This document shows, in pieces, positions 10,709 through 63,024 of a stretch of 64,000 bases of DNA (the stretch's first letter is position 1; each line of letters starts with the position of its first letter). The notes below the pieces were generated by a model. That model saw nothing but the letters and a program-made list of their open reading frames with translations, searched no databases and had not been told where the DNA came from. Origin of the DNA: an uncultured Acidobacteriota bacterium. GTDB lineage: Bacteria > Acidobacteriota > Terriglobia > Terriglobales > Acidobacteriaceae. The stretch is from positions 1,399 to 65,398 of the forward strand of contig CAVSYY010000012.1 in NCBI GenBank assembly GCA_963732315.1, in the 5' to 3' direction. A program made the position numbers and the translations under genes.

Positions 10709-11452
10709 ATGGCCGCCAACCAAGTTCCGATTGCCGATTACGTTTCCAGGTTGTTGAGCCGAGCCCAGGTCGCGGAAGGCACGATGGCCTTCCACTTCGA
10801 AAAGCCATCGCACTTTGCATTCACTTCCGGGCAAGCGGCGGACTTTACTTTGTCCGATCCTCCGGAAACGGACTCGGAGGGGAACACGCGCACTTTTTCC
10901 CTCGCTAGTTCTCCGTTCGAAAGCCAGTTGATGTTCACCACCCGCATGCGCGATACAGCGTTTAAGCGCTCACTCAAGCAAATACCTCTGGGTACCGAGG
11001 TGAGGATCGGCCCGGCGACGGGATCTTTCACGCTGCATAAGAACTCGGCCAAGGCGGCCGTGTTCCTGGCCGGTGGCATAGGGATCACTCCTTTTCTCAG
11101 CATCGTGCGGCAAGCCGATCACGATCGTCTTCCACACAAGTTGCACCTCTTCTATTCCAACCGGAGACCCGAGGACACCGCCTTTCTCGAAACTCTCCAG
11201 AGGCTGGAAAACAGCAACCCGAATTTCCATTTGATTTGCACCATGACCGATCTGGGGCAAGCCCAAAAGGATTGGAAAGGGGAAACGGGTTTGATCTGTA
11301 AAGAGATGTTGACGAGACATCTGAGCGCGCTGCAGGGGCCAATCTATTACAGTGCCGGGCCTCCCGCCATGGTTGCCGGCATGAAGGCGATGCTGGTGGG
11401 TGCCGGCGTGGACGAGGACGACATCCGAACTGAGGACTTTGCCGGATATTGA
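10709..11452 (+). CDS. FNR-like FAD/NAD(P)-binding oxidoreductase
   Basis: RTFSLASSP (RxYS-type FAD motif), LAGGIGITPFLSI (NAD(P) motif), YSAGPPAMV C-terminal motif. Confidence 0.8.
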   Translation: MAANQVPIADYVSRLLSRAQVAEGTMAFHFEKPSHFAFTSGQAADFTLSDPPETDSEGNTRTFSLASSPFESQLMFTTRMRDTAFKRSLKQIPLGTEVRIGPATGSFTLHKNSAKAAVFLAGGIGITPFLSIVRQADHDRLPHKLHLFYSNRRPEDTAFLETLQRLENSNPNFHLICTMTDLGQAQKDWKGETGLICKEMLTRHLSALQGPIYYSAGPPAMVAGMKAMLVGAGVDEDDIRTEDFAGY

Positions 11453-11531
11453 TGAGTTTCGATCTATTAAGATCCCATCGCGAAGCGACTTGCCGCGCTT
11501 TTTTTTGCAAGCGTCGGAGCCGCAGACGATC

Positions 11532-12698
11532 TCAGCCCCGCATCGCCCGCAGGCCCCTGTCGAGGTCGGCGATCAAGTCCGTTGTGCTCTCCAGTCCAAT
11601 GTTCAGCCGCACCAGGCGATCGCCGTACTCTGTGCGGCTGCGCACCCGGCTCATGTCGTAGGCCAAAGCCAGGCTGGCTACCCCGCCCCAGCTGTAACCG
11701 ATTTTGAACAGCTCCAGCGCGTCCACGAAGCCCCTTGTCTGCCTGCCGCTGAACTCCGGCTTCAACACCAGCGAGAACAGGCCCGAAGAACCCGTGAAAT
11801 CTCGCTTCCAGTGGTCATGTCCGGGGCAGGACTCCAGCGCCGGGTGCAGCACCGTCTGCACCTCGGGCCGGTTGGCCAGCCAGCGTGCAATCTCCAGCGC
11901 CGACCGTTCCACGTGTTCCAGCCGTACCGCCAGTGTCGTCATTCCGCGCAGCGCCAGGCTACAGTCATCAGGAGAGACCGCCAGCCCTAGCCACGCCCGC
12001 ACGTCGCCGAGCCGGTCCAGCTGGGCCGGGTCGCGCACCGTGACTGAGCCCAGCAGCAGGTCACTGTGACCGCCAAGGTATTTCGTCGCCGCCTGCACCG
12101 AGACGTCCACGCCGTGATCAAAGGCCTGGAACAGCACACCCGCCGACCAGGTATTGTCGAGCGCCACAGGGATAGCATGCTCATGCGCGGCCGCGCAGAT
12201 AGCAGGAACATCCTGCACCTCCATCGTGATCGAGCCCGGGCTCTCGGTCCACACCAGGTGAGTATTGGTGCGGAAGTGGCCGGCGATACCACCGCCAATC
12301 TCTGGCGGATAGAACGAGGATTCGATACCCAAGCGGCTTAGCAACTTTACGGCCAGTACGCGGTTTGGGTCGTAGACGTTCTCCGGGATGAGAACATGGC
12401 TTCCGGCGGATAGAAAAGCCAAGTCCACCAATCCGATCGCCGCCAGTCCGCTCGGAACCAGCAGAGTACGCGTGCCGCCTTCCAACTCCGCAATACGCGC
12501 CGCCAACTCCACGGTAGTGGGTGTGCCGTGCAAACCGTAGGAGTAGCCCACCTCTTCCTGATTCCACCCCGAGCGCGTTGATGAGCTATCCCGAAAAACG
12601 ACGGTGGAGCCGCGATAGACCGGCGGCACCAGCGACTCAAAGTCTTGGGGAACGTTCCCATCGGAATGGATCAGCCGGGTTTTCCAGTCTTTCGTCAT
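11532..12698 (-). CDS. metC: Cystathionine beta-lyase (PLP-dependent)
   Basis: Near-colinear with enterobacterial MetC motifs: ESPGSITMEVQDVPAI, DNTWSAGVLF, SVQAATKYLGGHSD (PLP Lys), HWKRDFTGSSGLFS, YSWGG, RLNIGLE. Confidence 0.9.
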   Translation of the reverse strand: MTKDWKTRLIHSDGNVPQDFESLVPPVYRGSTVVFRDSSSTRSGWNQEEVGYSYGLHGTPTTVELAARIAELEGGTRTLLVPSGLAAIGLVDLAFLSAGSHVLIPENVYDPNRVLAVKLLSRLGIESSFYPPEIGGGIAGHFRTNTHLVWTESPGSITMEVQDVPAICAAAHEHAIPVALDNTWSAGVLFQAFDHGVDVSVQAATKYLGGHSDLLLGSVTVRDPAQLDRLGDVRAWLGLAVSPDDCSLALRGMTTLAVRLEHVERSALEIARWLANRPEVQTVLHPALESCPGHDHWKRDFTGSSGLFSLVLKPEFSGRQTRGFVDALELFKIGYSWGGVASLALAYDMSRVRSRTEYGDRLVRLNIGLESTTDLIADLDRGLRAMRG

Positions 12699-12746
12699 AG
12701 CAGCCGGGTCCCGGAGCGCGCGCGAACGAACGCTCCCGAATGAATT

Positions 12747-13673
12747 CTACTGAGGACCGGGCGCCAGCAGGATGATTTTTCCGATGCCGCCCTTTTCCGC
12801 CAGCGCCTGTGCCTCCGCCGCATCGCGCAGAGCAAACCGGCGGCCGATCGGCAAAACGAACTTGCCGTCGCGCACATCATCGGCGAATTCACGCACCTTG
12901 GATGGATCGGGCTGGGCAAACACCCGCGTGATCTTTACCGCGGGGTACAGCGCCGCCGTGCCTTCCGGTAGTACAGATGCATACCCAAAAGCTCCCCCCG
13001 GCATCACCTTGGCGATCAACTTCACTGCCACTTCACCGCCAACCGTATCGGCAATTGCATCCAGAGAGCTGAGCTTCGCAATCGATTCGTCGTCGTCAAT
13101 TGCCACCACGCCGGAGACACCCAGAGAGCGAGCGCTTTCAATTTGCCGCTTGCGAACTCCCGCAATCACCTGTGCACCTATCTTCTTCGCCGTATGCACC
13201 GCAGCGCGACCCACGCTGCCCACCGCTCCCGTTACCAGTATCGTCTGCCCCTTCTGCAACTTCGCCGCATGGCGCACCAGTTGGTCTCCGGTCAAGCAAA
13301 CCAGCGGAATCGCCGCTGCATCCACCAGGTCCACCCCATCGGGCAGATGCGTCACCTCCGAATCAGGCACTGCCACCAGTTCGGCATAGGTCCCGTTGGA
13401 CAGGGCCAGTACCCGCTCCCCTGGCTTAAAGTGCTTCACATTCGCCCCCACGGCGCGCACGATGCCACTCACATCGCGGCCAAGAATCGCCGGGAACGAC
13501 AACGGGAAATCCTTCTGCCTTGCCCCCGAGCGAACCTTCCAGTCAATCGGATTCACGCTCGTGGCAGCCGCCGCAATCAGCACCGTATCTCCGCTCACCT
13601 GCGGATCGGCAACGTTGTCTTCATACTTCAGCACCTCAGGACCGCCATACTCATGCAGCACAACTGCCTTCAT
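12747..13673 (-). CDS. NAD(P)H:quinone oxidoreductase / zinc-type alcohol dehydrogenase superfamily (MDR)
   Basis: MKAVVLHEYGGPEVLKYED start, then TGAVGSVGRAAVHTAKKIGAQVIA Rossmann motif. The ATG at 13673 is used because the 364-aa ORF extension overlaps the patatin gene. Confidence 0.75.
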   Translation of the reverse strand: MKAVVLHEYGGPEVLKYEDNVADPQVSGDTVLIAAAATSVNPIDWKVRSGARQKDFPLSFPAILGRDVSGIVRAVGANVKHFKPGERVLALSNGTYAELVAVPDSEVTHLPDGVDLVDAAAIPLVCLTGDQLVRHAAKLQKGQTILVTGAVGSVGRAAVHTAKKIGAQVIAGVRKRQIESARSLGVSGVVAIDDDESIAKLSSLDAIADTVGGEVAVKLIAKVMPGGAFGYASVLPEGTAALYPAVKITRVFAQPDPSKVREFADDVRDGKFVLPIGRRFALRDAAEAQALAEKGGIGKIILLAPGPQ

Positions 13674-38977: not shown

Positions 38978-39442
38978 ATGAAGTTCAGAGCAAAAACCCC
39001 TCTTTGGCAGCAGATTTCGTCCACGGGCTCGATTGTGTTTGTCGCTGCCGCCGCCGGAGTGGCAGTACTCGGCGCCGCAATTCTGTTGCAGTGGATCATC
39101 TACAACGACTGGCTGCACCAGGCGGGGCTGCGGCTGGTGGGAAGCGTGGTGGCGGGCATTCTGACATCTCTGTTCGCCTATCGCTGGCAATGGGCGGTGC
39201 GCGAACAAAAGCTCGAGATGCTGCGGCGCTTTGAAACCATTTTGCGGATGAACGACCGGATTCGCAATGCACTGCAAATCATCGAGTGCGCCACGTATGC
39301 CAATAACCCGGAGGCCATCGAGCCGGTCAGGGATGCGGTGGATGCAATCGAAGGGGTTCTGCACGAAGTTCTTACCGAGACGCACCCTGCTCTAGCGAAA
39401 GTACCCGACGACAAGCCCATAGCGCCAATGCCGGAGCTTTAA
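38978..39442 (+). CDS. Hypothetical two-TM membrane protein with a helical cytoplasmic tail
   Basis: 154 aa with two clear hydrophobic helices. No recognisable motif. Its stop overlaps the 3' end of the convergent PAS pseudogene by 4 nt. Confidence 0.5.
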   Translation: MKFRAKTPLWQQISSTGSIVFVAAAAGVAVLGAAILLQWIIYNDWLHQAGLRLVGSVVAGILTSLFAYRWQWAVREQKLEMLRRFETILRMNDRIRNALQIIECATYANNPEAIEPVRDAVDAIEGVLHEVLTETHPALAKVPDDKPIAPMPEL

Positions 39443-40022
39443 CTGCGGTATTCGGGGTAATATTTTTCTACGCACGCAGGGCAGATTCCGTGGGAAAAAT
39501 CGACCCCGATATGATCGTGGAAATATTATTCGACGGTCTGCCAGTATTCGTCGTCGTTGCGAATCTTTCTGCACTGCATGCACATGGGAATGATGTCCTT
39601 CAGCTTGGACATCTCGGTGATGTCCTCGATGATGACCAGGGCCAGGGTGTCGCCGCCGCTGGTCATGGGACTTGCCGTGACTAACCGTTCCATGGCGTTC
39701 TGGGCGGTGACGGGCAAAAACTCCATTTTCATGCGGGCGCGGCTGACCGATTTTCCGTCGAGACAGGCGGTTACCGCATTGCGGATGACGCAGTGCGGGC
39801 AGGCCGGTCCGCGGCCGCATACCGTCTTAAACGTCGGCAGAGTGCAGGCAGTGCAGCACCTCTCCGCCGCGCCGCTTGAGAACGGTATCCTTCTCCTGCC
39901 CGGACATGGCGGAAGCGACGCGGTTGAGGTCCGCAATCCGTACGTCGTCGTCCACGACGAACACCGCTGAGGGGATAGCGTTCAGGGCGATGGACCAAAT
40001 GCGCAGGTTACCGGAGGAGCAT
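39439..40022 (-). pseudogene. PAS-domain signalling protein with a Cys-rich C-terminal module, disrupted by two +1 frameshifts and one in-frame TAA
   Basis: Minus strand: the ATG at 40022 (MLLR) hits TAA. The +1 frame continues LRIWSIALNAIPSAVFVVDDDVRIADLNRVASAMSGQEKDTVLKRRGGEVLHCLHSADV and then hits TAA. The next +1 frame continues KTVCGRGPACPHCVIRNAV...LALVIIEDITEMSKLKDIIPMCMQCRKIRNDDEYWQTVE. An in-frame TAA follows (39526-39528). Then 28 more open codons YFHDHIGVDFSHGICPACVEKYYPEYRS run to TAA at 39439-39441. Confidence 0.6.
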
Positions 40023-49171: not shown

Positions 49172-51920
49172 CTAAAGCTCGATATCTCCGTGGGCGAGTT
49201 CACCGCCGGTTTCCGTGACCCGGAAGCCGAGTTTCCTGCAGATGTGGTGCATCTCCTGGTCTTCTGCAAGCATGTTGCAGTGCACGTGTTTCAATCCTTC
49301 ATCGCGGGCCACTTCCAGAGCGCGGCGGAACAGGTCCGTGCCCAGTCCCTTGCCCTGGTAGTCATCGCGGATGATGACCGCGGTGTAGGCGGAGTTGGTG
49401 CCGTGCTGCTTGCTCATGCGGCTGACTCCGACAATCTCCGGCGAGCCCTTCCCATTTCTGGTCTCGGCTACCAGCGCCATCTGGCGGTCGTAGTCGATGA
49501 AGCAGATGTGGGTGAGGCGCTCGTGCGCGGTGCGCTGCCGCAGGTTCATGGGTTGGAAGTAGCGCTTGGTAACCGTGCGCTCGCTCAGCTTCTCGTGGAA
49601 TTTGACGATCGCGGGCTCGTCCTCCGGGCGGATCGGACGGACCGAAAGGACCTCGCCGTCTTCCAAGGTCATGGAGCCAACGTACTGGATCGGATAGGGA
49701 CGGATAGCAGTCTTGGGCAGCTTGTCCTCCGTCATCTCCGGCCCGTGCACCACCACGCGCGCGTCCAGCGCCAGCAAGCGCTCGGGCGAAGCCAGCAGAG
49801 GATTGATGTCGATCTCCTTGATCCAGGGCTGCTCGACCACCAGGTGGCTGAAGCGGACCAGCAGATCTTCCAGGGCCGCCAGATCGACGGCTTTGCGGCC
49901 GCGCACGCCCTTGAGCGCTTCGTAGACCTTGGTGTGCTCCATCATGCGGCGGGCCAGGGTACTGTTGAGCGGCGGCAGGCCCAGCGCGCTGTCCTTGTAA
50001 ACCTCGACCAGCTGACCGCCGGAGCCGAACAGAAGCACCGGGCCGAACTGCGGATCGAGCGAGGAGCCGAGGATGACTTCGTATCCTTCCAGCTTTGCCA
50101 TGGGCTGCACGGTGACGCCCAGGAAGTGGCCTTCGCCGGCCTTCTCGCGCACCGAGTCTCTCGATCTGCTTATACGATGTCCGGACCGCTTCAGCATTGC
50201 GGACATTGAGTTGCACGCCGCCTACGTCGGTCTTGTGGGTGATGGTCTCCGAGTGCAGCTTGAGCACCACCGGGTAGCCGATCTCGTCGGCGGCCTTGAC
50301 CGCTTCCTCCGCGGTGTGGGCAATGCGGGTCTCGGTAACCGGGATGCCGTAGGCCTTCAACAGCTCTTTCGACTCGAACTCGGTCAGGATGGTGCGGCCG
50401 GTCTGGCGCACGTGCTGAATGAGTTCGGAGGCTTTCTCGCGATCGATCTGAGCCGATTCCGGCTTCACGTCCGGCGTCTCGTACAGAGACTTCAGGTTCC
50501 TGGCGTACTGCCACATATAGTTAAACGCTGCGCAGGCAGCATCCGGATAGGCGAAGGTTGGAATGCCGGCGCGGTTCAGAATCTGTTCGCCATAGGAGAC
50601 CATCGAACCGCCCATCCAACTTGCCAGGAAGGGCTTGCCAAGGGAATTGGCATAAGGGCGCAGGTTCTCGGCGATACTGGTCGGGTCGGTCATGCCTTGC
50701 GGCGTCATGATGACGAGAATGCCGTCAGTTTCCGGGTCCTGCGCCGCGACTTCCAGCGCCTTGGCGTAGCGGTCCGGTTCGGCGTCGCCGAGAATGTCGA
50801 CGGGGTTGCCATGGCTCCATGCGAAGGGTAGGAACTCGTTGTACTTTGCCATCGCCTCCGGTGACACCTTGGAGAGTTTGCCGCCGCCTTTGGAGAGCGC
50901 GTCGGTCGCCAGCACGCCGGGACCGCCGGCATTGGTGACGATGCAAAGGCGATTGCCCTTGGGACGCGGCTGCTTGGCCAGCACCTCGGACATATTGAAT
51001 AGGTCCTGGATGGAATCGACGCGCAGCACGCCGGCGCGCTGGAAAGCGGCGTCCAACACGCCGTCGCTGCCGGTCAGCGAACCGGTGTGCGAGGCGGCGG
51101 CCTTGGCGGCCTCGGCAGTGCGTCCCGCCTTGATGACGATGATCGGCTTCTTCATGGAAACTTCGCGCGCGGCGCTGAGGAAGCTGCGCGGATCGCCGAT
51201 CGACTCCATGTAGGCCACGATCGAAGTGGTATGCGGATCGGTGCCGAAGTATGTAATCAGGTCGCCCCAGTCCACGTCCAGCATGGAACCGATGGAGATA
51301 AAGGTGCTGAAGCCGACCATCGCCTTGTAGGACCAGTCCAGTACAGCGGTACAGAGCGCGCCGCTCTGGCTGATGAAGGCAAGATTTCCAGGCCGCGCCA
51401 CGGTATGCGCGAAAGTGGCATTAAAACCGGTGAGTGGGTTCATCACGCCGAGGCAGTTAGGGCCAATCAAGCGCATCTTGCCCCGGATCGCTTCCTTGAT
51501 CTGGCGCTCGTACTCCACTCCCTTTTCACCTATTTCCTTGAATCCGGCGGAGATGACGATAGCCGCAGGAACTCCGAGGCCTACGGCATCCCGGATCAGC
51601 TCAGGGACGCCATCCGAGGGCGTGGTGACCACGATGCAATCGGGCCGCTCGGGAAGGTCATGAAGATTCTTGTAGGCGTGAATACCGAGGATGTTATCGC
51701 GCTTGGAGTTGACCGGGTAAACGGTGCCGCCGAACGGTGAGCCGATCATGTTGCTTAGGACCATGCGTCCCACACTGCCCACGCGGTCGGTGGCTCCAAT
51801 CAGGGCGACGGACTTGGGCTTAAACACCGCGTCCAGCGGAAGAGTATCAGGTCGTAGAAGGTCATGTGCCGGGTCAATGAGAAGCGCGGCATCGGGGCTA
51901 GGAGCTTTCAGCATAGTCAT
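49172..51920 (-). pseudogene. Pat-like bifunctional NDP-forming acyl-CoA synthetase / GNAT protein-lysine acetyltransferase, frame broken by one extra base
   Basis: The N-terminal frame (49362..51920 ORF) is genuine up to ...[13 protein letters not shown] and then becomes Arg/Pro/Gly junk. The genuine sequence resumes in the +1 frame (49172..50206 ORF) at ...[19 protein letters not shown] through a C-terminal GNAT domain. The junction lies in a GAGAGAC context at about 50153-50162. Confidence 0.8.
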
Positions 51921-52282: not shown

Positions 52283-53683
52283 CTAAGCCGCGATGCGGAA
52301 ATCCTCTGCGTCCGTGGCGACGGGGTTATGCCAGCCTCCGGTCAGCGAAATTTTCTGGTCGACCTCACTCGGCCCCCAGGTGCCTGGCTCGTATTCATAA
52401 ATGGGAGAGTTGGCCTTTAATACCGGATCGACGATTCGCCATGCTTCCTCCACGTAATCCTGCCGGGCAAACAGAGTGGGATCTCCTGCCATGGCCTCGC
52501 CCAGCACTCGCTCATAGGCTTCCATCTCCTCCGGACGGGGATGGCGGCTGGCCACCATCTCGATGGTCTCGCCTTTCATAGCCTCGCCGGGAGTCATAAC
52601 CATGGCGCCCATGGCGATCGTCATCTCGGGACTGATCCGGAATCGCAGATAGTTTTGCGTCAAAGCACTCTCGCTAATGACTGCGGGCGGCTTGCGTAAA
52701 CGGCCGAGAATCTCCGTACAGGTCACAGGCAGGTTCTTGCCCGCGCGAATGTAGAACGGAACTCCCTTCCAGCGCCAGGAATCAAGCTCCAGCCGCAGTG
52801 CGGCGAAGGTTTCCGTCTTCGAATTGGTTGCAACGCCCTTTTCCTGAAGGTAGCCGCGGAACTGCCCGCGGACGAGATGTTCCGCTTCCAGCGGTGGAAT
52901 CGATTTCAATACCTTCACCTTCTCGTCGCGAATGCTCTCACTGTCCGTGCGGACGGCAGGCTCCATGGCCAGGTTGCAGAGGATTTGAAAGAGATGATTC
53001 TGGATCACGTCGCGAATCGTGCCGACTTCATCATAGAAGGCGCCGCGTCCCTGCACTCCGAAATCTTCCGCCATGGTGATCTGCACGCTTTCGATGTAGT
53101 TGCGATTCCAGAACGGTTCCATGAACGCATTGGCGAAGCGGAAGAACACCACATTGTTCACGGGTCGCTTGCCAAGATAGTGGTCGATGCGGAAGATTGC
53201 GGACTCGGGAAAGGCCGAGTGCAAGATCCGGTTCAGCTCCTGCGCAGAAGCGAGATCACGGCCGAAGGGCTTCTCGACGATGACACGGGCACCCTGCGCG
53301 CAGCCCGCGTTCGCAAGTTGTTTTACCACGGTTTCGAACAAGAGGGGTGGGATAGCCAGATAATGCGCCGGGTGTTGGGCTCCCTTGAGTTCGCCGCGGA
53401 GCGCCTGAAAAGTTGTCGGGTCCGCGTAGTCGCCGTCCACGTAACGCAGTAAGCCGCTCAGCTTATCGAATGCCGCGGCATCAACCCCGCCGTGTTTTTC
53501 CAGGCTGTCGTGCGCTCGCGCCCGAAGCTGTTCCAGGTTCCAGCCGGCCTTGGCGACGCCGATGACAGGCACGTCAAGGTGGCCGCGCTTCAGCATGGCC
53601 TGCAGCGCAGGGAAGATCTTCTTGTAGGCCAGATCGCCCGTGGCGCCGAAGAAGACCAGAGCATCGGCATGTGGATTCGTCAT
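52283..53683 (-). CDS. zwf: Glucose-6-phosphate dehydrogenase
   Basis: [24 protein letters not shown], and the [16 protein letters not shown] region. Confidence 0.9.
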
Positions 53684-53695
53684 TGGTTCACTCCT

Positions 53696-54730
53696 TTACG
53701 CGGCCTCTGTCTTGTCCTTCGGTTTTTCCAGGTGTCCGCCGAAGCCGAAGCGCATCGCCGAGAGCAACTTGTCCGGGTAATCCGCCTCACCGCGCGAGCT
53801 GAAGCGCTGGTAAAGCGCGGCGGAGAGAACCGGCGCCGGCACCGCCTCGTCGATTGCCGCCTTGATCGTCCACCGGCCTTCGCCCGAGTCCGAAACACGC
53901 CCGCTGAACTGGGAGAGATTGGGATCGTTCACCAGACTGGCCGCGGTCAGGTCCAGCAGCCACGATGCGATTACGCTGCCGCGCCGCCATACTTCCGCAA
54001 TGTCGCGCAAATCGAGGTCAAACTGATAATGCTCGGGGTCGCGCAGCGGCGTCGTTTCTGCGTCAGCCGCATGCTGCTGCCTGCCCACGTTGGCGCCGCG
54101 CAAGATGCCCAAGCCCTCGGCGTAGGCAGCCATGAGACCGTACTCGATGCCGTTGTGGACCATCTTGACGAAGTGTCCGGCGCCGCTGGCGCCGCAGTGC
54201 AGGTAACCCTGTTCGGCAGTGCCGTCCAACTTTTCCCGCCCCGGCGTGCGCGGCGCGTCACCGGCGCCGGGCGCCAGCGTGGCGAAAATCGGATCGAGAT
54301 GGCGAACCACGTTCTGTTCGCCGCCGATCATCATGCAGTAGCCGCGCTCCAAGCCCCACACGCCGCCGCTGGTCCCCACGTCCACGTAGTGAATGCTCCT
54401 GGCCGCCAGCTCTTTGGCACGCCGAATGTCATCCACGTAATAGGAATTGCCGCCATCGATGAGGATGTCTTCCGGGTCAAGATGAGGCACCAGGGCCGCG
54501 ATGGTGGTGTCCACGACCGCTGCTGGAACCATCAACCAAATCGCCCGAGGCTTCTCCAGCTTGGTCACGAAATCCTGCAGCGAAGAGCTGCCCGTCGCAT
54601 TCTCCTTGACCATCTCATTCACTGCTGCCGGCGACATATCGAATACCGCGCACTGATGGCCGCCCTTCAGGAGCCGCCGAACCATGTTGGCCCCCATTCT
54701 TCCCAGCCCAACCATTCCAAGTTGCATCAC
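53696..54730 (-). CDS. gnd: 6-phosphogluconate dehydrogenase, decarboxylating (short form)
   Basis: [20 protein letters not shown] Rossmann start. [29 protein letters not shown]. Confidence 0.9.
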
Positions 54731-54760
54731 TTGCTCCTTTTCGAATGTCGTTGCACGGCT

Positions 54761-56443
<1,683 letters not shown>

Positions 56444-56465
56444 CGTAGTGCTCCTTTGATTTCGG

Positions 56466-57552
56466 CTAGGCCGCTTTGAGAGCGGCGCTCTTGGAATCGA
56501 TCACCGCCATCAGATCGTTCCAGGACTGAACAAAGGACTTTGCGCCTTCCTCCTGAAGCTGGGCAGCCAGCGCGTCGGCGTCGATGCCGGCCTTGGCAAA
56601 CTGCGCCAGCACTTCCTCGCAGTCGCCGCCGTCGGCCGGCAGGATCGTGCCCAATTCGCCATGATCGGCCAGGGCTTTCAGCGTAGCATCCGGCATGGTG
56701 TTGACCGTGAATGGCGCCGCGAGCGCCTTGACGTACAGTACGTCGGATGCCTTGGGATCCTTGGTTCCCGTGCTGGCCCATAGCAGCCTTTGCGGGCGGG
56801 CACCGGCGTTGAAGACGCGCTGCCAGCGGAGGTGAATCCAGCAACTCGCGGTAAGCCTTGTAGGTACGTTTGGCGATGGCGATGCCGAGTTGGTCGCGCA
56901 GTGAGTCAGGCACTTTGTTGCGCCACCGCAACGTCCCAGCGGCTGATGAAGATGGAGGCGACCGAGCCGACATCGGGGTCGAGTCCGGCCTCGATGCGCC
57001 GCTCGATGCCGCGCAAGAATGCCTCGGCGGCTGCCAGATACTGCTCGCGCGAGAACAGCAGGGTGACGTTGATCGGAACGCCGGCAAAGATGGCTTCCTC
57101 GATCGCGGGCAGGCCTTCTTTGGTGCCGGGAATTTTGATGAGAAGATTGTGCTGTCCGGCCCGCGCGTGATAGATCCTTGGCCGCGGCCAGGCTGCTGGC
57201 TGTGTCATAGGCCAGCAAGGGAGACACTTCGAGCGACACCCAGCCGTCCACGCCGTTCGTCCGGTCGTGGACTGGTCGAAACAAGGCGGCGGCTTGCGTG
57301 AGGTCCTCCAGCGCCAGTTCGAAGAAGAGCGCCTCGCCCGATTTGCCCCTGCTCAGCTTCTCGCGGATCGCCAGAGTCGTAAGCCGTGCTGTTCTTGATC
57401 GCGTGGTCGAAGATCGTCGGATTAGAGGTAAGCCCCGTGACCGAGAGTTCGGTGATGTAGCGCTGAAGCGTGCCGCTGTCCAGCAGATCGCGCGTGATGT
57501 TATCGAGCCAGATGCTCTGGCCCAGATCGTGGAGCAATTGTGTCGCTTTCAT
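56466..57552 (-). pseudogene. tal: Transaldolase with four single-base insertions (otherwise well conserved)
   Basis: Five colinear in-frame segments on the minus strand. (1) [22 protein letters not shown]...NSTAYDS. (2) [24 protein letters not shown]...[28 protein letters not shown]. (3) HARAGQHNLLIKIPGTKEGLPAIEEAIFAGVPINVTLLFS...SRWDVAVA. (4) NKVPDSLRDQLGIAIAKRTYKAYRELLDSP. (5) RWQRVFNAGARPQRLLWASTGTKDP...ALKAA*. Each junction needs one base skipped, at about 57371, 57170, 56920 and 56828. Confidence 0.85.
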
Positions 57553-57619
57553 GACTCACTCCTATCTCGCCTCCAAGCAGATCGCTTTCCGACGTCGTCT
57601 GCCTTGCCTGCCAGCAGCA

Positions 57620-59396
57620 TTAGGCGGATGCCTCCAGCGCGTTCTTGACGATCTCCTGGGCCTCGGCGACGATCGCGTTCAGGTGGCTTTCGTCCCGGAA
57701 GCTCTCCGCGTAGATCTTGTAAATGTTCTCCGTGCCGGAGGGGCGGGCGGCAAACCAGCCGGTCGCGAGCCACCACTTTCAATCCGCCAATGGGGGCATC
57801 GTTGCCCGGAGCGCGGGTCAACTTGGCGGTAATCGGCTCGCCTGCCAAGTCCGATGCCTTGACCGCCTCCGGCGACAGCTTTCCCAGCTTCGCTTTCTGC
57901 TCGGGAGTCGCTGCTGCATCGATGCGCGTGTAGTAGGGAGTGCCGAACTCCGCGGTGAGTTCGCGATAGTGCTCGCTCGGGTCCTTGCCGGTCCGCGCGG
58001 TGATCTCGGCCGCCAGCAGGTCCATGATTAGGCCGTCCTTATCGGTGGCCCACGCGCTTCCGTCCCGCCGCAGGAAACTCGCGCCCGCGCTCTCTTCGCC
58101 GCCGAAACAGCACGAGCCATCGAATAAACCCGGCGTGAACCACTTGAAGCCCACGGGAACCTCGGAGAGCCTGCGGCCAAGTTTATGTACCACCCGGTCG
58201 ATCATGCTGCTGCTCACCACGGTCTTGCCCACCGCCGCGTTCTTGGGCCATTCCGGACGCTCCGTGAGCAGGTAACCGATGGCAACGGCCAGGTATTGAT
58301 TCGGGTTCATCAAGCCGGCAGAGGGCGTCACGATTCCGTGCCGGTCGGAGTCGGGGTCATTGGCAAAGGCGACGCGGTACTGGTCCTTGAGTCCGACCAG
58401 CCGGGCCATCGCGTACGGACTGGAACAGTCCATGCGGATCTTGCCGTCGTGATCCACGGTCATGAACGAAAAGGTCGGGTCGATCTTCGTGTTCACGACA
58501 GTGACGTCGAGTTGGTAGATGGAATTGATCGGCTCCCAGTAAGGCAGTGAAGAGCCGCCCAGCGGGTCCACCCCCAACTTAAGGCCGGCGGCACGAATGC
58601 TGTCCATGTCGATCACGTTCCTCAGATCGCGGACATAGGGCAGGATGAAGTCTTCCTGATGCGTGCTGCCGGATTGGATCGCTGCTCTGAGCGGTACCTG
58701 CTTTACCCCCGCGTTGCCCTCGCGAAGCAGTTCGTTCGCCCGGTCTTCGATCCATCGCGTCACGTCGGTATCGGCCGGACCGCCGTTGGTCGGGTTGTAC
58801 TTGAAGCCGCCATCCTCGGGAGGATTGTGCGAGGGCGTTATGACGATACCATCGGACAGGTGATCCTTGCGGCCGCGGTTGTAAACCAGAATGGCGTGCG
58901 AGATGACCGGCGTCGGAGTCACGCCGTCGTCTGGCTGGATGATCGTCTGCACGCCGTTGGCTGCCAGAACCTCAAGCGCGGTATTCTGCGCGGGACCGGA
59001 GAGCGCGTGCGTGTCTTTGCCCATGTACAGTGGTCCGTCCGTGCCACGACGGCGACGGTAATCGCAGATCGCCTGCGTAATGGCCAGGATGTGGGCTTCC
59101 GTGAACGATCCTCGCAGCGACGAGCCGCGATGTCCGCTGGTGCCGAAGCTCACCATCTGATTCGGGTCTTCGACATTGGGCCGGCGCTCGAAATATTCCC
59201 TTTGCAGCCGGGCCACATCCACCAGCATATCTTTGGTTGCAGGCTGGCCCGCCAGAGGAGAGATCGCCTCCAGGTTTTTCGCTGCATCCGGCCCGGACGG
59301 CACCTCGGTCTCACTACGCATGATTCCACCCTTCAAATATCCGCTGTGTATTGGATGATGGTGCGGTCCCGGAGAATTTACCGCCGTCCGCCACAT
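57620..59396 (-). pseudogene. pgm: Phosphoglucomutase (alpha-D-glucose-phosphate specific) with one single-base insertion near the 3' end
   Basis: [11 protein letters not shown] active-site loop and colinear Pgm motifs. After ...[12 protein letters not shown] the annotated frame turns to junk. The +1 frame gives [46 protein letters not shown] ending at 57620. Junction about 57761. The likely start is the ATG at 59321 (MRSETEVP). Confidence 0.85.
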
Positions 59397-62063: not shown

Positions 62064-62615
62064 TCAGTCACTATGTTCGATGGTGCCGTCGTCTCGCGCA
62101 GTTAGAGGTCTCTGGGGCTCTGAACCATGACGGTAAACATGGCAGAGCATACCTCTCGCTGTATGGGCCACCAGCAAACGATCTATGACGGATTGTTCCG
62201 AGGTTCCTTGCGGGTCAAATACCACCTGTGCAGCTTTCTCAGTGAGAGTGCTGGTGGATATGGCGGCAATAGTAGCCATCGTGGTGGAGCAGGTCAATGA
62301 CTCGAAATCGGTGCAAAACCCGGTTTTCGCACCACCTTTGCACCCCTTTTTCACAGTTCATCGCCTGCAACCAGCAGCATTGCTTTTGCTCAAAATGAGC
62401 TGCGAGACTTGCACCTGTGAAGAGGCAATGAGCATATCGTCACCGCCCGGCTTCAAAACAAATGCGGAAGCCAATGTGCGCCGATTTGTTATCCGGGGCG
62501 CCCACGACTGATGAAAAGCCGCACCAGAGAATAAAGCGGTTATTTCAGGTTCTCTGTGCACCTTCAGTTCACCCAAAGCCAAAAACAGCAAATTGGTAGG
62601 TCGGCTGTCGATCAT
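62064..62615 (-). other. Orphan ~183-codon reading frame interrupted by one in-frame TGA (pseudogene or recoding candidate)
   Basis: ORFs 62358..62615 and 62064..62354 are in the same frame, separated only by TGA (62358-62360) and one codon. No family recognised. Low GC. Confidence 0.3.
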
Positions 62616-63024
62616 TTTAACTTTCAGTTAAGTCGTTTGGTTGCCATGCCATAGCGGAGAGAAAGGGATTTGGACCCGCGATACAGGTTGGCAACACCTA
62701 GGTAATCGACCGGCGTCGTCGAGTTGCTCTCACAGGGGCTTTCGTGCTCAGGCTGCGCGGAACCAGGTATCGGACCGCCAGGCGCCAGTGGAGCGCCGGT
62801 CACGACTCCTTCCCCTTCCCGCAAAACGCTGGTCACTTCCCTGCAATTACGAAGGTGCCTGTACCTTAGCGGTTTTGTCTTCCCAAAATCCCCGTCTTGA
62901 GCCGTTATAGAGGCAAGTGTCGGGTGCGGTCCTGCCACCAAAAGGAATAGGGCGGTCGCGGCGGAGTCCGGCGCGCGGCTGCAGTCCAGCGGGAACGCTG
63001 CCGCTGCAGGGAGTCCCAGTGACG

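Follow-up and report, generated by a model that had tools for sequence, protein, structure and literature searches.

The window, a stretch of 64,000 nucleotides, carries on its minus strand (52283-59321) a pentose-phosphate/glycolysis operon made up of pgm, tal, pgi, gnd and zwf (Table 1). As deposited, tal is not one uninterrupted ORF. Three-frame translation of the minus strand showed that the sole way to read the gene, from its start ATG at 57552 to the stop TAG at 56468-56466, leads through frames 0>1>2>0>1, that is, over four +1 frame steps, confirming the five frame segments with all the transaldolase motifs that an initial annotation of this DNA had described. The pieces tile the Pfam domain TAL_FSA (PF00923) consecutively, at positions 1-42, 45-101, 102-169 and 197-283, and the third segment carries NLLIKIPGTKEG, the (L)IKIP motif, whose lysine we take to be the catalytic Schiff-base residue of the transaldolase family. 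Correcting the frame yields a protein of 360 aa with 0 stops. Thousands of transaldolases of 360-364 aa match this read-through protein along 100% of its length, at 86-92% identity, and the enzyme of the relative G015 (see below) is 91% identical to it. Membership of the transaldolase family thus extends over the full length of the gene, by the tiled fragments as well as by the 360-aa read-through.

The adjoining pgm gene stays in frame up to residue ~518, and its last ~48 residues, which make up domain IV, are encoded in the +1 frame. A tblastn search with Pgm of G015 as query returned residues 1-518 in one frame and residues 510-566 in the next. The tail in the +1 frame corresponds to PGM_PMM_IV (PF00408), a domain absent from the ORF as it stands, so that domains I-III are the only ones of the four phosphoglucomutase domains found in a single frame in the deposited gene. 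The placing of the genuine pgm C-terminus in the +1 frame, and the statement that pgi, gnd and zwf are intact (dN/dS 0.05-0.105), likewise agree with the initial annotation.

Table 1. Genes of the operon, extra bases and other frame-breaking events. Positions are those of the window unless a contig is named; inserted bases are bracketed in the sequence context, which for the five extra bases is that of the coding strand.
Feature	Position	Strand	dN/dS	Description
pgm	57620..59321	-	0.13	alpha-D-glucose-1,6-bisphosphate-dependent phosphoglucomutase; one +1 break
tal	56466..57552	-	0.17	360-aa transaldolase, PRK03343/mycobacterial type; five frame segments (0,1,2,0,1)
pgi	54761..56443	-	0.105	intact (ORF list; 0 indels vs G015)
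gnd	53696..54730	-	0.05	intact (ORF list; 0 indels vs G015)
zwf	52283..53683	-	0.095	intact (ORF list; 0 indels vs G015)
Extra base in pgm	57766	-		G, CTC[G]CGA; absent in G015
Extra base 1 in tal	57374	-		ACT[C]TGG; absent in G015, G014, G009
Extra base 2 in tal	57168	-		ATC[A]CGC; absent in G015, G014, G009
Extra base 3 in tal	56921	-		GGC[G]CAA; absent in G015, G014, G009
Extra base 4 in tal	56827..56828	-		CCT[C]CGC, placement ambiguous by one position; absent in G015, G014, G009
Single extra base	50160	-		CGA[G]AGA; splits gene 51920..49175
Single extra base	39821	-		CGG[T]ATG; splits 193-aa gene 40000..39442
Two extra bases	12717..12718	-		GC in GCGCGC run; shifts frame of 461-aa gene 12919..11535
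gyrA	G000:C1:253496-256152			frames -1,-2,-3,-1,-2,-3; five +1 steps, same staircase as tal
ftsH	on C1, near gyrA			two frame breaks
gltX	on C1, near gyrA			two frame breaks
ddl	on C1, near gyrA			one frame break; 99% aa identity on either side
mnmG				one frame break
RND permease				four frame breaks
828-aa gene with enolase domain				six or more frame breaks

Comparison of pgm and tal with relatives

G015, a congener of 93-95% nucleotide identity, aligns collinearly with nearly the entire window (93-97% identity), and its Tal protein bears the NCBI organism name 'Candidatus Korobacteraceae bacterium'. Alignment of window positions 56440-57800 (minus strand) with G015 placed exactly five 1-nt gaps in G015 inside pgm and tal; the two sequences also differ, harmlessly, by 3 nt between these genes. 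From the first to the last of the five insertions there are 939 bp, and 214 nt separate the pgm lesion from the tal start downstream of it, close to the ~930 bp and ~210 nt given initially; the junctions placed by hand at 57761, 57371, 57170, 56920 and 56828 proved right to within 1-5 nt. None of the five extra bases lengthens a homopolymer beyond two.

The G015 genes are open at these sites. Its Pgm comprises 566 aa and scores 910 bits against TIGR01132; its Tal comprises 360 aa and scores 452 bits against NF002881 (cut-off 367). Two further relatives, G014 (83% identity) and G009 (76% identity), were also compared base by base and are without the four insertions in tal; the open tal genes of G015, G014 and G009 measure 360, 359 and 354 aa, respectively. 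The polarity of the insertions therefore rests on three genomes for tal and on G015 for pgm. As the extra bases are absent in relatives with intact genes, they are specific to this assembly. We also searched for a second, independently assembled genome of this strain in which tal is intact and found none; among database proteins, the one most similar to the read-through Tal is 92% identical.

We also calculated dN/dS by the Nei-Gojobori method against G015, with the extra columns dropped (Table 1). Neither tal nor pgm contains an in-frame stop after frame correction, and dN/dS together with the frame-corrected translation revealed no signs of a pseudogene at the two genes, be it relaxed selection, stops or deletions. 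The initial impression that no other decay is visible is borne out by these values. Frame-corrected tal is a normal transaldolase under purifying selection.

Frameshifts elsewhere in the window and in the genome

All indels between the window and G015 were sorted by their location inside or outside credible genes. This left three further frame-breaking events, at 50160, 39821 and ~12717 (Table 1). The first of them lies in a 915-aa gene of the ADP-forming acyl-CoA ligase/acetyltransferase type, directly downstream of zwf, which is split into 587 and 328 aa, each 99% identical to G015.

Larger differences from G015 were seen as well. A 92-bp segment at window 62587-62678 is present only in this genome and not in G015, and at window 61789 a 400-bp segment of G015 is absent here; both sites are in an intergenic/variable region upstream of a 621-aa transporter-like gene. 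Outside the window, ~44 kb past its end, a 774-aa gene is broken up by an insertion of 1,028 bp that G015 lacks (G000:C12:109326-110367). It encodes a 319-aa DDE transposase-like ORF that resembles the IS481 family, and, unlike the 1-nt events, the segment looks like a genuine mobile-element insertion.

We compared intact ORFs of G015 from 880 kb, drawn as two samples, with the whole genome to which the window belongs. The main count used per-gene MAFFT global alignments, with nearby compensating indels netted, and covers a 13% sample of the genome. In sample 1, 78 of 322 genes were hit, by 181 net frameshift events in total; in sample 2 (contigs C9, C18, C7 and C2), 45 of 167 genes were hit, by 104 events. 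Together this makes 285 net events among 489 orthologous genes, which cover 523 kb of coding sequence on seven contigs, with 25% of the genes affected. A conservative count of tblastn frame junctions gave 102 junctions in 71 of 475 genes (15%). Frameshifts of the insertion type occur on every contig sampled, the mean event rate in the assembly is 0.2-0.54 per kb of coding sequence, and extrapolation to the full assembly gives ~700-1,900 single-base indels in coding sequence, biased towards insertions and lying outside homopolymers. The initial annotation had considered a local low-quality patch; its reading as an artefact is strongly supported, but the patch is not an isolated one, with 15-25% of genes broken and every contig sampled involved.

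Raw megablast gap counts were dropped as an estimate of frameshifts in favour of the netted MAFFT events and tblastn junctions, as divergent stretches contain pairs of gaps that cancel out and push the numbers up. Likewise, the asterisks inside tblastn HSPs (28 in 103,000 aa) were not taken as a count of nonsense codons, since HSPs overrun frameshift points, as the HSP of the pgm tail exemplifies. In the reciprocal test, with ORFs of the window's genome as reference and G015 scored, we found 37 junctions in 32 of 407 genes, indicating that G015 also carries some consensus errors; per aligned residue the window's genome is ~2x worse than G015. Despite its own frame junctions elsewhere (L011-L057), G015 is intact at all five pgm/tal sites.

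Essential genes and further copies

The frame-broken genes include gyrA, whose five +1 steps form the same staircase as those of tal, and, near it on C1, ftsH, gltX and ddl (Table 1). A tblastn search of the genome for a second orthologue of gyrA, ddl or ftsH found none. As these single-copy genes are broken and no cell would be viable with them in this state, all lesions of this class must have a technical origin.

The search for second copies of the operon genes returned one tal paralogue, the only one in the genome, on G000:C11 at ~11257-12300 (minus strand), with 47% identity to the operon Tal. It is itself frame-broken at least once and was not accepted as a functional backup for tal. As for pgm, the other Pgm-like match is only 27% identical and was discarded as a backup.

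Signature of the insertions

Single-nucleotide insertions exceed deletions by ~3:1 (98 against 38 in sample 1, of which 97 and 37 are clean 1-nt events, and 69 against 17 in sample 2). The clean +1 insertions, 166 in number, favour no codon phase (60/54/52), and the composition of the inserted bases matches the genomic GC. No flanking motif, slippery sequence or phase bias was found among these 166 sites. In sample 1, 75 of the 97 clean insertions have no adjoining identical base. Events of -1 and +2 are also present.

The events are clustered, with a variance/mean ratio per gene of 3.5. Sixty-two of the 285 begin a stretch with at least 5 events per kb, the maximum being 9. The pgm/tal cluster is denser than the mean rate of the assembly; given the patchy clustering across the assembly, it is a typical patch and not an outlier.

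Discussion

The comparisons presented here indicate that the five extra bases are very probably residual consensus errors, arising in base-calling or polishing, in a draft metagenome-assembled genome of a soil bacterium. In the organism itself, tal and pgm are almost certainly undamaged and part of a normal pgm-tal-pgi-gnd-zwf operon. It is a Korobacteraceae-group acidobacterium, and the operon is an ordinary one.

The errors would fall in patches of poorly supported consensus, of which the pgm/tal stretch would be one. Their technical cause may lie in low or uneven long-read coverage, in patches of near raw-read quality, or in polishing against mixed strains. Local densities of 5-9 indels per kb are roughly those expected of sequence close to raw-read quality, suggesting that the patches probably rest on few reads or on mixed strains, and the position of most insertions outside homopolymers points to poorly supported consensus patches rather than to systematic homopolymer miscalling. 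The assembly, a MAG-like bin, is probably a long-read metagenome bin: it totals 4.0 Mb in 18 contigs, the longest of them 1.37 Mb, its completeness is 97.8% at 3.6% contamination, and one contig, of 362 kb, includes a complete 16S. Many of its nearest public relatives are Nanopore soil MAGs, and the Nanopore soil MAGs among these relatives were assembled with Flye and given one round of Medaka (PMC12313526). Detecting gene-fragmenting errors against a reference is established practice (PMC12007338).

An artefact could also have come about by strain chimerism of the bin or of the consensus, polishing on mixed strains, and not low coverage, making indels where the strains diverge. We regard this as possible though rather unlikely. 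The strong clustering of events, up to 9 per kb, and the estimated bin contamination would suit such an origin, and soil Acidobacteriota populations are typically strain-rich; on the other hand, divergence from G015 is not visibly higher in the pgm/tal patch than in its flanks. Strain-mixture polishing is in any case a variant of the main error explanation, and here it is inseparable from low coverage.

Genuine and very recent pseudogenisation, with the transaldolase and the C-terminal domain of Pgm lost via five independent 1-bp insertions, is highly improbable. The extra bases are present in the deposited sequence, and the only tal paralogue is also frame-broken, so that no obvious backup is at hand; the same error process is nevertheless the simpler account of the broken paralogue. 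Four independent insertions of the same direction, in a gene of 1.1 kb that shows neither a stop nor a deletion nor a raised dN/dS, do not match the way in which pseudogenes decay, and a process affecting 15-25% of the genes with no sequence or codon-phase bias does not fit it either. Above all, identical lesions in single-copy gyrA, ftsH and ddl cannot all be real. We have set aside the notable metabolic loss that the initial annotation had put forward as one option, since these three genes, each present once, are broken in the same manner.

Slimmer still is the chance that the five pgm/tal insertions exist in the organism, with most of the assembly's other frameshifts being errors, in which case the operon transaldolase would just have been inactivated and Pgm truncated. 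If true, this would mean a rewired non-oxidative pentose-phosphate pathway, perhaps following one error-prone repair event that inserted bases across a 1-kb tract. Recoding is next to inconceivable. In it, the frame would be restored by quadruplet decoding, by editing of the transcript or by programmed ribosomal frameshifting in the +1 direction, which accords with the fact that the four tal shifts and the pgm shift are all +1 and that no segment meets a stop before the next junction. Yet no motif, codon phase or slippery sequence is common to the 166 insertion sites; G015, G014 and G009, whose genes are simply in frame, do not conserve the sites; and, with -1 and +2 events existing too, the system would have to work at hundreds of unrelated places.

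Taken as residual consensus errors, the frameshifts are an assembly-quality problem of no biological importance, and their value is that of a quality flag. The genome appears to serve as a species-representative, yet ~1 gene in 4-7 is frame-broken. Automated annotation of it would give false pseudogenes and pathway gaps (transaldolase, Pgm and even gyrase) as well as too many short hypothetical ORFs, and attempts to reconstruct the metabolism of this Acidobacteriota lineage would be misled. Any other frameshift, split gene or lost pathway noted in this genome should carry no weight unless borne out by reads, and the assembly needs polishing or frameshift-aware annotation.

Comparison with known systems

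Set beside the transaldolase family (NF002881/TIGR00876/PF00923), frame-corrected tal keeps the Schiff-base lysine motif LLIKIPGT; the difference is that here the deposited ORF is interrupted four times. Similarly, pgm resembles the four-domain alpha-D-phosphohexomutases of TIGR01132 in having domains I-III in frame, including the TPSHNP active-site serine loop, and in possessing domain IV with its loop, and it differs from them in that domain IV is here in the +1 frame.

Pseudogene-rich genomes, such as those of Mycobacterium leprae and of recently host-restricted symbionts, show a mixture of stops, deletions and IS insertions under relaxed selection, and their essential genes are intact. The present genome shares with them its many interrupted genes. 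In contrast to them, almost all of its lesions are 1-nt indels, the signatures of selection are intact, and essential single-copy genes are hit.

A close likeness is to the indel errors of long-read (Nanopore/PacBio) assemblies, as addressed by IDEEL-type tests and frameshift-aware tools (PMC9262707, PMC12007338). There, too, conserved genes are split into adjacent ORFs, the breaks are genome-wide and include essential genes, and the thresholds set for MAG completeness and contamination are passed all the same. A MAG with very many frameshift errors can still be classed as high-quality, and consensus quality depends on coverage (PMC9262707). Homopolymer indels are the classic Nanopore error (PMC9262707), whereas here about three quarters of the insertions lie outside homopolymers and insertions outnumber deletions ~3:1.
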